From: Escherichia coli
GTDB taxonomy: Bacteria; Pseudomonadota; Gammaproteobacteria; Enterobacterales; Enterobacteriaceae
Reading direction: 5' to 3' (one strand)
Length of the DNA stretch: 64,000 nucleotides
Assembly (NCBI RefSeq): GCF_003334385.1
Contig: NZ_QOWN01000023.1
Both the position numbers and the translations under genes were made by a program. Of this stretch, positions 3,033 through 26,404 are shown one piece after another. The notes below the pieces were generated by a model. That model worked only from the letters and a program-made list of their open reading frames with translations, was not told the DNA's origin and did no database searches. The stretch's first letter is position 1; every line of letters begins with the position of its first letter.

Positions 3033-3396
<364 letters not shown>

Positions 3397-4062: not shown

Positions 4063-4074
4063 TAAAAAGAATTC

Positions 4075-4136
4075 AGAATCAGGCCGGAGTGCTAAATACT
4101 CCGTAAACACGGTCGTACATCCAGCCGGTAGCCTGA
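4075..4136 (+). other. Structured iscR-iscS intergenic RNA element (long-range dyad AATCAGGCCGG ... CCGGTAGCCTGATT with nested hairpins)
   Basis: Dyad symmetry read directly; consistent with the intergenic structure reported to stabilise the iscR fragment after RyhB-dependent cleavage of the isc mRNA. Confidence 0.45.
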
Positions 4137-4173
4137 TTCCTTGCATTGAGTGATGTACGGAGTTTATAGAGCA

Positions 4174-21421: not shown

Positions 21422-22576
21422 ATGTCTGAACAATTAGTCACACCTGAAAACGTCACCACGAAAGATGGAAAAATCAACCTGCTGGATCTCAACCGTCAGC
21501 AGATGCGGGAGTTTTTTAAAGATTTAGGTGAAAAACCCTTCCGCGCCGATCAGGTGATGAAGTGGATGTATCACTATTGCTGCGACAACTTTGATGAGAT
21601 GACCGACATCAACAAAGTGTTGCGCGGCAAACTGAAAGAGGTGGCGGAAATCCGCGCACCGGAAGTGGTTGAAGAACAGCGTTCATCTGACGGCACCATT
21701 AAATGGGCGATCGCCGTTGGCGATCAGCGCGTCGAAACGGTGTATATCCCGGAAGACGACCGTGCCACGCTCTGCGTCTCTTCGCAGGTGGGGTGTGCGC
21801 TGGAGTGTAAATTCTGTTCCACCGCCCAGCAGGGCTTTAACCGCAACCTGCGGGTGTCGGAAATTATCGGCCAGGTGTGGCGTGCGGCGAAAATCGTCGG
21901 CGCAGCAAAAGTCACCGGTCAGCGTCCGATCACTAACGTAGTGATGATGGGCATGGGCGAGCCGCTGCTCAACCTGAACAACGTCGTTCCGGCGATGGAA
22001 ATCATGCTTGATGATTTCGGTTTTGGCCTGTCTAAACGTCGCGTCACGCTTTCCACTTCCGGTGTAGTTCCGGCGCTGGATAAACTGGGCGATATGATCG
22101 ACGTTGCACTGGCAATTTCCCTGCACGCGCCGAACGACGAAATTCGTGACGAAATTGTGCCGATCAACAAAAAGTACAATATCGAAACGTTCCTTGCTGC
22201 GGTGCGCCGTTATCTGGAGAAATCCAACGCCAATCAGGGCCGAGTCACTATTGAATACGTGATGCTTGACCACGTTAACGACGGCACTGAACACGCGCAC
22301 CAACTGGCGGAACTGCTGAAAGATACGCCGTGTAAGATCAACCTGATCCCGTGGAACCCGTTCCCGGGTGCGCCGTATGGACGCAGCTCGAACAGCCGTA
22401 TCGACCGTTTCTCAAAAGTGCTGATGAGCTACGGTTTCACCACTATTGTGCGTAAAACTCGTGGTGATGATATCGATGCTGCCTGTGGTCAGTTGGCGGG
22501 CGATGTTATCGACCGTACGAAACGTACCCTGCGTAAACGGATGCAGGGTGAAGCCATCGACATTAAAGCGGTCTGA
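21422..22576 (+). CDS. rlmN: Dual-specificity RNA methyltransferase RlmN (radical SAM)
   Basis: 384 aa; radical-SAM CxxxCxxC motif CALECKFC. Confidence 0.95.
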
Positions 22577-22624: not shown

Positions 22625-22860
22625 GAATGAAGTATTAAGTTGCAATTGTCTGGTCAATATTAACGGTGCGTTTTTGCTGACTTTAAGGCAGTATGTAACG
22701 ATGCAACAGTAAGTTAGCCTTAGTGAATGTGGGCTTTGTCACGAGCACACAGACGGTCTTATACTGTATGATAACGGTTAACTTAACGGATGTTTCGCGG
22801 TGTGGGTGAGCATGATGGTTCACCGGCATCTCAATTCTCATTTAAACGTACCTGCAGCGA

Positions 22861-23874
22861 ATGAATACTGAAGCCACGCACGACCAAAATGAAGCACTTA
22901 CTACCGGCGCTCGCCTGCGTAATGCTCGCGAACAACTAGGACTTAGTCAGCAGGCCGTTGCCGAGCGACTTTGCCTGAAGGTTTCCACGGTACGCGACAT
23001 TGAAGAAGATAAGGCACCCGCCGATCTTGCTTCAACATTCCTGCGCGGATATATCCGCTCTTATGCGCGTCTGGTACATATTCCAGAAGAAGAACTGCTG
23101 CCAGGGCTGGAAAAGCAGGCTCCACTTCGGGCTGCAAAAGTTGCGCCGATGCAGAGTTTTTCCCTCGGTAAACGCCGCAAAAAACGCGACGGCTGGCTGA
23201 TGACCTTCACTTGGCTGGTGTTGTTTGTGGTTATCGGCCTGAGCGGTGCCTGGTGGTGGCAAGACCACAAAGCTCAGCAGGAAGAGATCACCACTATGGC
23301 CGATCAATCTTCGGCGGAACTGAGCAGTAATAGCGAGCAGGGGCAGAGTGTTCCATTAAATACGTCGACAACTACAGACCCGGCTACAACGTCCACGCCG
23401 CCAGCGTCTGTGGATACTACCGCAACCAACACGCAAACACCTGCCGTAACTGCGCCAGCACCAGCTGTTGATCCGCAACAGAATGCGGTTGTTTCGCCTT
23501 CGCAGGCAAATGTTGATACCGCCGCGACCCCGGCACCAACGGCAGCAACAACGCCAGATGGTGCTGCGCCGTTGCCAACCGATCAGGCTGGCGTGACCAC
23601 GCCGGTGGCTGATCCGAATGCGCTGGTGATGAACTTTACTGCCGATTGCTGGCTGGAGGTCACTGATGCTACCGGTAAAAAATTGTTTAGCGGTATGCAG
23701 CGTAAAGACGGTAATTTGAACTTAACCGGCCAGGCACCGTACAAACTGAAAATTGGTGCGCCAGCCGCAGTACAGATCCAGTATCAAGGGAAACCTGTCG
23801 ATCTGAGTCGTTTTATCAGAACTAACCAGGTTGCGCGTCTGACCCTCAATGCCGAACAATCACCGGCGCAGTAA
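22861..23874 (+). CDS. rodZ: Cytoskeleton protein RodZ (HTH, single TM, Pro/Thr/Ala-rich periplasmic linker)
   Basis: 337 aa; N-terminal HTH; TM segment [22 protein letters not shown]; low-complexity linker. Confidence 0.93.
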
Positions 23875-23900: not shown

Positions 23901-25019
23901 ATGCATAACCAGGCTCCAATTCAACGTAGAAAATCAACACGTATTTACGTTGGGAATGTGCCGATTGGCGATGGTGCTCCCATCGCCGTACAGTCCATGA
24001 CCAATACGCGTACGACAGACGTCGAAGCAACGGTCAATCAAATCAAGGCGCTGGAACGCGTTGGCGCTGATATCGTCCGTGTATCCGTACCGACGATGGA
24101 CGCGGCAGAAGCGTTCAAACTCATCAAACAGCAGGTTAACGTGCCGCTGGTGGCTGACATCCACTTCGACTATCGCATTGCGCTGAAAGTAGCGGAATAC
24201 GGCGTCGATTGTCTGCGTATTAACCCTGGCAATATCGGTAATGAAGAGCGTATTCGCATGGTGGTTGACTGTGCGCGCGATAAAAACATTCCGATCCGTA
24301 TTGGCGTTAACGCCGGATCGCTGGAAAAAGATCTGCAAGAAAAGTATGGCGAACCGACGCCGCAGGCGTTGCTGGAATCTGCCATGCGTCATGTTGATCA
24401 TCTCGATCGCCTGAACTTCGATCAGTTCAAAGTCAGCGTGAAAGCGTCTGACGTCTTCCTCGCTGTTGAGTCTTATCGTTTGCTGGCAAAACAGATCGAT
24501 CAGCCGTTGCATCTGGGGATCACCGAAGCCGGTGGTGCGCGCAGCGGGGCAGTAAAATCCGCCATTGGTTTAGGTCTGCTGCTGTCTGAAGGCATCGGCG
24601 ACACGCTGCGCGTATCGCTGGCGGCCGATCCGGTCGAAGAGATCAAAGTCGGTTTCGATATTTTGAAATCGCTGCGTATCCGTTCGCGAGGGATCAACTT
24701 CATCGCCTGCCCGACCTGTTCGCGTCAGGAATTTGATGTTATCGGTACGGTTAACGCGCTGGAGCAACGCCTGGAAGATATCATCACTCCGATGGACGTT
24801 TCGATTATCGGCTGCGTGGTGAATGGCCCAGGTGAGGCGCTGGTTTCTACACTCGGCGTCACCGGCGGCAACAAGAAAAGCGGCCTCTATGAAGATGGCG
24901 TGCGCAAAGACCGTCTGGACAACAACGATATGATCGACCAGCTGGAAGCACGCATTCGTGCGAAAGCCAGTCAGCTGGACGAAGCGCGTCGAATTGACGT
25001 TCAGCAGGTTGAAAAATAA
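23901..25019 (+). CDS. ispG: 4-hydroxy-3-methylbut-2-en-1-yl diphosphate synthase IspG (GcpE)
   Basis: 372 aa; conserved position between rodZ and hisS; C-terminal Cys ligands ([16 protein letters not shown]). Confidence 0.95.
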
Positions 25020-25129
25020 TAACGTGATGGGAAGCGCCTCGCTTCCCGTGTATGATTGAACCCGCATGGCTCCCGAAACATTGAGGGAAGCGTTGAGGGT
25101 TCATTTTTATATTCAGAAAGAGAATAAAC

Positions 25130-26404
25130 GTGGCAAAAAACATTCAAGCCATTCGCGGCATGAACGATTACCTGCCTGGCGAAACGGCCATCTGGCAGCG
25201 CATTGAAGGCACACTGAAAAACGTGCTCGGCAGCTACGGTTACAGTGAAATCCGCTTGCCGATTGTAGAGCAGACCCCGCTATTCAAACGTGCGATTGGT
25301 GAAGTCACCGACGTGGTTGAAAAAGAGATGTACACCTTTGAGGATCGCAATGGCGACAGCCTGACTCTGCGCCCTGAAGGGACGGCGGGCTGTGTACGCG
25401 CCGGCATCGAGCATGGTCTTCTGTACAATCAGGAACAGCGTCTGTGGTATATCGGGCCGATGTTCCGTCACGAGCGTCCGCAGAAAGGGCGTTATCGTCA
25501 GTTCCATCAGTTGGGCTGCGAAGTTTTCGGTCTGCAAGGTCCGGATATCGACGCTGAACTGATTATGCTCACTGCCCGCTGGTGGCGCGCGCTGGGTATT
25601 TCCGAGCACGTAACTCTTGAGCTGAACTCTATCGGTTCGCTGGAAGCACGCGCCAATTACCGCGATGCGCTGGTGGCATTCCTTGAGCAGCATAAAGAAA
25701 AGCTGGACGAAGACTGCAAACGCCGCATGTACACTAACCCGCTGCGCGTGCTGGATTCAAAAAATCCGGAAGTGCAGGCGCTTCTCAACGACGCTCCGGC
25801 ATTAGGTGACTATCTGGACGAGGAATCTCGTGAGCATTTTGCCGGTCTGTGCAAACTGCTGGAGAGCGCGGGGATCGCTTACACCGTAAACCAGCGTCTG
25901 GTGCGTGGTCTGGATTACTACAACCGTACCGTTTTCGAGTGGGTGACTAACAGTCTCGGCTCCCAGGGCACCGTGTGTGCAGGCGGTCGTTATGACGGTC
26001 TTGTGGAACAACTGGGCGGTCGTGCAACACCGGCTGTCGGTTTTGCGATGGGCCTCGAACGTCTTGTATTGTTAGTACAGGCCGTTAATCCGGAATTTAA
26101 AGCCGATCCTGTTGTCGATATATACCTGGTGGCTTCAGGTGCTGATACACAATCTGCGGCTATGGCATTAGCTGAGCGTCTGCGTGATGAATTACCGGGC
26201 GTGAAATTGATGACCAACCACGGCGGCGGCAACTTTAAGAAACAGTTTGCCCGTGCTGATAAATGGGGTGCCCGCGTTGCTGTGGTGCTGGGTGAGTCTG
26301 AAGTGGCTAACGGCACAGCAGTAGTGAAGGATTTGCGCTCTGGTGAGCAAACGGCAGTTGCGCAGGATAGCGTAGCCGCGCATTTGCGCACGTTACTGGG
26401 TTAA
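25130..26404 (+). CDS. hisS: Histidine--tRNA ligase
   Basis: 424 aa; GTG start; class II aaRS motifs. Confidence 0.95.

Follow-up and report, generated by a model that had tools for sequence, protein, structure and literature searches.

The low-complexity stretch of rodZ recorded in the initial annotation is very probably the Pro/Thr/Ala-rich disordered periplasmic region of RodZ, a bitopic inner-membrane morphogenetic protein. The gene lies in the window, the whole 64-kb stretch of Escherichia coli DNA that was analyzed. The architecture of RodZ, including a disordered PT-rich region, has already been published, and the finding as first stated matters little because the region is both published and dispensable for laboratory rod shape. 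Mildly new are trimmed boundaries for the linker (residues 156 to 250), three conserved islands within it, and a survey of the mosaic alleles carried by E. coli genomes. Islands, trimmed boundaries, and allele mosaicism were not found in the RodZ literature that was searched.

The gene is certainly rodZ, as the initial annotation had it. The coding sequence (337 codons plus stop; positions 22861 to 23874, + strand, as are all features given below) lies between rlmN (21422 to 22576) and ispG (23901 to 25019). Its product matched the NCBIfam equivalog NF008109 (PRK10856) with 609.8 bits, against a cutoff of 208, over residues 1 to 333 of 337. Two Pfam domains were found, HTH_25 (residues 18 to 79; E = 4e-14) and RodZ_C (PF13464; residues 256 to 328; E = 5e-24), with none between them. 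In a megablast search rodZ was single-copy, chromosomal, and annotated as rodZ by RefSeq in every one of the 5426 complete genomes of E. coli. The gene order rlmN-rodZ-ispG-hisS is conserved in E. coli, and rodZ behaves as a single-copy core gene. The identification follows from the NCBIfam match, the Pfam domains, the synteny, and the single copy in all genomes. A disrupted rodZ in strain P276M was set aside as a probable assembly artifact because the adjoining rlmN is also frameshifted. The linker DNA of the window is 100% identical to that of K-12 MG1655, and the residue numbering of the window protein agrees with that in the literature (Q140/E141; truncations at 142 and 155).

The domain layout of the window protein corresponds to the published order of helix-turn-helix (HTH), juxtamembrane (JM), transmembrane (TM), PT-rich, and beta domains (preprint 10.64898/2026.01.05.697639). 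The cytoplasmic HTH domain (residues 18 to 79; 22912 to 23097), which has a structural relative in PDB entry 3fym, is described in the literature as the part of RodZ that binds MreB. The translation contains a basic juxtamembrane cluster, KRRKKR (residues 104 to 109; 23170 to 23187), on the cytoplasmic side of the TM helix, which has been called the JM/KRRKKR region (PMC6946637, PMC7018016). The TM helix itself spans residues 112 to 133 approximately (23194 to 23259), as indicated by an AlphaFold2 (AF2) model built from a 63-sequence alignment (pLDDT of 77 to 85 over residues 111 to 130) and by PDB entry 6s0k, in which chain k is RodZ 106-138. The basic cluster stands on the N-terminal side of this single helix; therefore, the positive-inside rule, together with the literature, points to an N-in/C-out orientation with the linker in the periplasm. 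Beyond the TM helix there are a conserved periplasmic juxtamembrane helix (residues 138 to 155; 23272 to 23325), recognized from alignment, the AF2 model, and preprint 10.64898/2026.01.05.697639; the PT-rich disordered region proper (residues 156 to 250; 23326 to 23610), delimited by composition, the AF2 model, and the lack of a Pfam or PDB match; and the C-terminal beta domain RodZ_C (residues 256 to 328; 23626 to 23844), for which AF2 gave beta strands over residues 255 to 329 with a pLDDT of about 78 to 87.

The linker had been placed at 23300 to 23625 and described as a tether of about 110 residues between the TM helix and the C-terminal domain. The end of this interval is exact, and its start falls on the second base of codon 147, 1 nucleotide late, so that the codon-exact segment is 23299 to 23625, or 109 amino acids (residues 147 to 255). 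The description as a tether holds for residues 156 to 250 and not for residues 147 to 155, which are part of the conserved MreC-binding helix and stand outside the linker. When the window protein was aligned with 82 further RodZ sequences, drawn from alleles of E. coli and from other members of Enterobacteriaceae (83 sequences in all), residues 131 to 154 were nearly invariant. Residues 147 to 155, largely within that block, had 87% identity to the window protein without indels and were predicted to be helical, and AF2 modeled a single long helix from residue 111 to residue 156. RodZ residues 138 to 155 have been reported to be needed for MreC binding, on the evidence of two-hybrid assays, coimmunoprecipitation, and mutagenesis (Q140K, E141K), and have been named the MreC activating domain (preprint 10.64898/2026.01.05.697639). 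The conserved helical stretch of residues 131 to 156, reached independently here, fits that domain.

The compositional bias that first drew attention to the segment was confirmed. Residues 147 to 255 consist of 19% A, 19% T, 15% P, and 10% S, and these four residues together account for 63% of the segment versus 26% of the remaining RodZ; within residues 156 to 250 their share reaches 57 to 80% in 30-residue sliding windows. K, R, H, F, W, Y, C, I, and M are absent from the segment, and only 4 of its 109 residues, all Leu, belong to the class FWYILMC. Shannon entropy was 3.16 bits in the segment and 4.10 bits elsewhere in RodZ. When the 44 long open reading frames of the 64-kb stretch were cut into all 13,655 windows of 109 amino acids, the segment ranked top for T+P+A+S (z of about 7), with a maximum of 0.64 in rodZ versus 0.385 in the next open reading frame and a mean of 0.25 (standard deviation, 0.055). 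A search for a DNA repeat behind the bias with TRF returned only a 2.1-copy match of 9 nucleotides (score, 31), and there were no notable families of direct repeats. The bias is compositional, without a repeat unit of DNA or peptide.

The initial annotation had also called the linker intrinsically disordered, and prediction bears this out. The AF2 model of residues 162 to 249 was all coil, with a pLDDT of 32 to 42 (below 50), the segment had no Pfam family, and no PDB chain covers the linker, the available entries being confined to the TM segment (6s0k) and to relatives of the HTH domain. The mean TOP-IDP value was 0.236 in the linker versus 0.08 to 0.13 in the folded domains. Only the Uversky charge-hydropathy criterion failed to class the segment as disordered (mean hydropathy of 0.456 versus a boundary of 0.446 at a net charge of 0.092), a result explained by the lack of charge in the segment and its abundance of A, V, and T. 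The charge-hydropathy plot is known to miss uncharged Pro-rich linkers, and this result slightly weakens the case for disorder. When the AF2 model was compared with the PDB by Foldseek, nothing matched at E ≤ 0.001 (best, 0.023), and the search was uninformative on both the linker and the beta domain. In the periplasmic part of E. coli RodZ, a disordered domain, the "periplasmic disordered domain," has been described ahead of a folded beta domain (PMC6946637, citing Ikebe 2018 for the disordered domain). Part of the B. subtilis RodZ ectodomain is disordered according to the nuclear magnetic resonance study of Pereira 2015, as cited in PMC6946637. Prediction together with this cited work suggests that E. 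coli RodZ 156-250 is intrinsically disordered.

RodZ is an MreB-binding protein required for rod shape (PMC6946637, PMC6052060), and periplasmic truncations of RodZ lower the number of MreB polymers (PMC6052060). In the mechanism that we propose, the single TM helix (residues 112 to 133 approximately) would anchor RodZ N-in and run on into the periplasm as the conserved helix of residues 138 to 155, which would contact MreC. The following 95 or so residues (156 to 250), with many prolines and without charge clusters or aromatics, would be unable to fold, and we infer that they serve as a flexible, proline-stiffened, probably rather extended leash or spacer that keeps the beta domain (residues 256 to 328) off the membrane. 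By a general polymer-scaling law, a chain of 93 residues would have a radius of gyration of about 2.7 nm and would span about 6.6 nm from end to end on average, its contour length being about 35 nm. The disordered residues 156 to 250 may also contribute to self-association of RodZ, which, as PMC6946637 cites from Ikebe 2018, dimerizes or self-cross-links via the disordered domain. Selection would act on the presence of the spacer, its approximate length, and its composition rather than on its sequence; the linker sequence turns over fast while its length is roughly preserved. RodZ 1-142 and 1-155 give rod shape (PMC6946637), and RodZ 1-155 restores growth and shape in a rodZ deletion strain (PMC6946637; preprint 10.64898/2026.01.05.697639). 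Because RodZ 1-155 complements the deletion, the role of the linker is not needed for laboratory rod shape, and its function as a leash is therefore putative.

Comparison across Enterobacteriaceae shows that the linker is not a uniform, featureless tether and that it contains three conserved islands. Identity of the 82 other RodZ sequences to the window protein was 91% in the N-terminal part and 93% in the C-terminal part versus 47% in the linker, which turns over faster than the flanking domains, with frequent indels, and has a length of 94 to 116 amino acids (standard deviation, 4.8) in the 83 sequences. A first variable spacer (residues 156 to 207; 30% identity; 44 to 61 amino acids) includes the QSVPL island (residues 162 to 166; 23344 to 23358). 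It is followed by the NAVVxPSQANVD island (residues 208 to 219; 23482 to 23517; 89% mean identity), a second variable spacer (residues 220 to 236; 27% identity; 5 to 24 amino acids), the PLPTDQA island (residues 237 to 243; 23569 to 23589; 84% mean identity), and a lead-in to RodZ_C (residues 244 to 255; 65% identity; 11 to 15 amino acids). The second and third islands had essentially no indels. In QSVPL, Q162 is invariant and P165 and L166 are 99% conserved while every synonymous codon is used; in NAVVxPSQANVD, V210, P213, Q215, and A216 do not vary in an alignment of 63 sequences while third codon positions are saturated; and in PLPTDQA, L238, P239, and A243 are invariant. The pN value was 0.089 in the islands versus 0.48 in the spacers, with pS values of 0.76 and 0.72, respectively. 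Because amino acids are fixed while synonymous sites are saturated, the islands are conserved at the protein level, by purifying selection. The spacers evolve close to neutrally apart from their composition.

A low-complexity disordered spacer is a trait of the RodZ family, with sequence and motifs that are lineage-specific. A search of 1.84 billion representatives gave 12,409 matches, and among the best 150 of these, 126 were full-length and RodZ-like. All 126 had a low-complexity spacer between the end of the TM helix and RodZ_C, with a length of 81 to 190 amino acids (median, 120) and a T+P+A+S fraction of 0.22 to 0.65. VVxPSQ-like motifs were present in 5 of the 126 versus 0.9 expected, and [STQ][VI]PL in 11 versus 1.8 expected; the pattern LP[TVAS][DE] was not above chance in this set. 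In this set the islands are confined to nearer relatives and are gone beyond close Enterobacterales.

It is possible, and we suggest it tentatively, that the linker mainly carries short linear binding motifs and that the islands dock periplasmic partners, for example, PBP2, MreC/D, RodA, a second RodZ molecule, or the RodZ beta domain, the PT-rich stretches serving only to separate them. The low pN at saturated synonymous sites, the lack of indels in islands between spacers that vary widely in length, and the eight invariant residues listed above would all be expected of such motifs, and self-interaction via the disordered domain has been reported (PMC6946637). However, AF2 gave the three islands no confident structure or intramolecular docking, the motifs vanish beyond close Enterobacterales relatives, and RodZ 1-155 restores growth and shape with none of the three islands present. 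Binding motifs in the linker would refine the leash explanation and would not exclude it.

The length of the linker had been said to vary often between strains, which is weakly true: lengths of 107 to 109 amino acids were found in the E. coli alleles sampled, and variation is larger between species, at the 94 to 116 amino acids given above. In an evenly spaced sample down the ranking of 5426 genomes, which yielded 59 intact linker matches, the linker measured 327 nucleotides in 45, 321 in 12, and 324 in 2. Only three lengths (109, 108, and 107 amino acids) thus occurred among the sampled matches, and about 24% of genomes have a linker 1 to 2 codons shorter.

Sequence varies more than length. 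Identity of linker DNA to the window was bimodal in the 5426 genomes (at least 95% in 4109, 90 to 95% in 22, and 80 to 90% in 1295), whereas for the 5' 438 nucleotides of rodZ 5425 genomes had an identity of 95% or more, and no intact allele in the sample fell below 98.6%. With the allele of strain 536 as the query, identity was at least 99% in 1094 genomes and 95 to 99% in 167. The differences among E. coli alleles are concentrated in two hypervariable blocks, block A (codons 152 to 186 approximately; 23313 to 23418; with a 6-nucleotide indel) and block B (codons 189 to 205 approximately; 23427 to 23475; with a 3-nucleotide indel), with about 22 to 23 differences per 100 nucleotides versus 0 to 5 around them. 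Block A of the K-12 type and that of the 536 type have 76.9% nucleotide identity (dS, 0.48; dN, 0.17). In block B the window is the same as strain 536, and strains GN03551 and SX48 differ from both (dS, 0.96; dN, 0.14), while sharing their block A with strain 536. Over the whole linker, dN among E. coli alleles was 0.08 to 0.11 versus about 0 in the flanks, where dS was 0.03 to 0.10. Because blocks A and B assort independently and have a dS far above that of the flanks, the alleles are recombinant mosaics. For comparison, the flank dS between E. coli and E. albertii was 0.44, and the divergence of the mosaic segments equals that between these two species. No clear donor of the divergent blocks was found among 80 species representatives, of which only Escherichia sp. 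MOD1-EC7003 shares the K-12-type block A, at 92.6%.

Relaxed constraint alone was considered as the source of this strain diversity and rejected because dS is raised along with dN. Between species, the linker dS was about twice the flank value, a modest effect that may stem from noise in the alignment, from looser constraint on synonymous sites, or from a raised mutation rate. An HKA-like contrast of 4-fold differences within and between species was marginal (P = 0.05 and 0.02), and balancing selection is therefore not claimed.

Islands and mosaicism might be joined in a single account in which the PT-rich region is an array of three Enterobacteriaceae-specific motifs whose spacers are repeatedly swapped by short recombination tracts anchored in the islands. 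We consider this account unlikely. If it were true, the motifs would dock elongasome partners or mediate oligomerization, and recombination would yield old mosaic allele families.

Diversifying selection on the linker, as might result from binding by a periplasm-acting toxin or phage protein, could be suspected from the bimodal identity of the linker beside the near-invariant 5' end, from a dN that is raised in the linker and about 0 in the flanks, and from mosaic alleles with a block dS of 0.5 to 1.0. However, dN/dS was 0.15 to 0.4 in every block and pair and never greater than 1; thus, there is no sign of positive selection. The raised dS is what old or imported segments would leave, not rapid adaptive change. 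The segment lies in the periplasm and can be dispensed with in the laboratory, and nothing relevant on polymorphism of rodZ or its positive selection in E. coli was found in the literature. We therefore regard diversifying selection as very improbable.

It is harder still to credit that the linker is O-glycosylated, with glycans that would stiffen or protect it. The proposal draws on S. pneumoniae RodZ, in which the Ser/Thr-rich linker shifts gel mobility upon deletion of the GtrB glucosyltransferase (PMC11092751), and the E. coli segment is itself 29% S+T. However, the wide range of T+P+A+S in the distant linkers, from 0.22 to 0.65, indicates that richness in S and T is not a conserved requirement. 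Furthermore, we know of no general O-glycosylation of periplasmic proteins in K-12-type strains of E. coli.

A nucleic acid-level origin of the bias (overlapping gene, structured RNA, internal promoter, or terminator) is effectively refuted, since the one terminator-like hairpin in its favor from a promoter/terminator scan (23473 to 23488) is below the chance expectation of 2.8 and has a stem that is broken in related Escherichia, an Rfam gathering scan found no family in rodZ, there is no overlapping alternative open reading frame of more than 53 amino acids, the segment has no DNA repeat, and third codon positions are free where amino acids are conserved.

With a disordered periplasmic leash as the preferred reading, the islands inside a region considered "dispensable" are candidate interaction motifs for work on the elongasome. 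The rodZ linker is also a small, clear case of a core gene whose disordered spacer gathers deeply diverged mosaic alleles while the flanking domains stay nearly invariant. The mosaic alleles are relevant to typing schemes and selection scans that include rodZ.

The closest known system is the published disordered domain, or PT-rich region, of E. coli RodZ (YfgA), which is the same protein and the same residues, with nothing essential different. RodZ of S. pneumoniae and B. subtilis has a similar extracytoplasmic, low-complexity, Ser/Thr-rich stretch between the TM helix and the C-terminal beta domain, but its sequence cannot be aligned with that of the E. coli linker. The S. pneumoniae linker is O-glucosylated via a GtrB pathway (PMC11092751). 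E. coli is not known to modify RodZ in this way. The NCBIfam model of streptococcal RodZ gave the window protein only 34 bits.

Disordered spacers are also found in other envelope proteins of Gram-negative bacteria, for example, the Pro-rich spacer of TonB, the linkers of LpoB and FtsN, and the Ala-Pro hinge of OmpA. Like these, RodZ is a membrane-anchored protein with an unstructured Pro-rich or low-complexity stretch that would let a distal domain or motif reach a partner across part of the periplasm. The spacers of TonB and OmpA are tandem dipeptide repeats (EP/KP and AP, respectively), whereas the RodZ linker has no repeat unit and almost no charge. A disordered domain combined with a short conserved motif, as in RodZ, is described for ExbD (bioRxiv 10.1101/797811). 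TonB, ExbD, LpoB, FtsN, and OmpA are unrelated to RodZ, and a requirement for reach would be hypothetical for RodZ. The PT boxes of bacterial glycoside hydrolases belong to secreted enzymes, are usually 20 to 50 amino acids long, and have more regular (PT)n runs. Although the two have no evolutionary relationship, the RodZ linker and these PT boxes have the same palette of P, T, S, and A, are uncharged, and join two independently folding modules.

Two short blocks of rodZ, at 23313-23418 (block A) and 23427-23475 (block B) of the window, have diverged to a between-species level among the E. coli alleles compared (the window and three other strains). Synonymous divergence in these blocks was 0.5-1.0, with a dN/dS of 0.15-0.35, and dS was only 0.03-0.10 in the remainder of rodZ, in rlmN, and in ispG. 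On sequence comparison, the rodZ alleles of E. coli have a mosaic structure built from blocks A and B. Block A was not of the K-12 type in approximately 24% of the 5426 complete E. coli genomes searched. No donor lineage for the divergent blocks was found among 80 species representatives.

RodZ residues 138-155 (23272-23325), a periplasmic juxtamembrane stretch, are near-invariant across Enterobacteriaceae and are predicted to continue the transmembrane helix. The MreC-activating domain of RodZ described in a 2026 preprint (10.64898/2026.01.05.697639) coincides with this conserved stretch. The initial annotation, which placed the disordered linker at 23300-23625, wrongly included the last 9 residues of the stretch.

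Strain P276M (NZ_CP044293.1) was the sole genome of the 5426 without an intact rodZ match. Two pseudogene fragments stand in place of rodZ, and the adjoining rlmN is also a frameshifted pseudogene. Because rodZ is split and its neighbor is frameshifted too, these disruptions suggest that the assembly is rich in errors and that the gene has not truly been lost.

The 284-nt spacer between rlmN and rodZ holds a sigma-70-like site (TTGTCA-18 nt-TATACT, 22736-22765, plus strand), a candidate rodZ promoter by its consensus match (10/12) alone. Such sites were no commoner than in shuffled sequences.

In strain SX48, the counterpart of 25100-25550 is a divergent block of approximately 450 nt spanning the spacer upstream of hisS and the 5' end of that gene. 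It carries approximately 110 differences from the window (approximately 25%), compared with 0-5 per 100 nt in its surroundings, and looks like a separate recombination import adjoining rodZ-ispG. The hisS annotation in SX48 is 15 nt longer.

The ispG-hisS spacer, directly 3' of the rodZ-ispG pair, contains a full-length Rfam match to the sroE sRNA (25019-25110, plus strand, 116.6 bits), a known E. coli feature. Elsewhere in the window, Rfam matched naRNA4, a nucleoid-associated (REP-type) noncoding RNA, three times with identical scores and 91-nt spacing (3093-3346, plus strand), as well as iscRS (4063-4172, plus strand), ryfA (11547-11850, minus strand), and IS128 (11982-12190, minus strand), all of which are known families.
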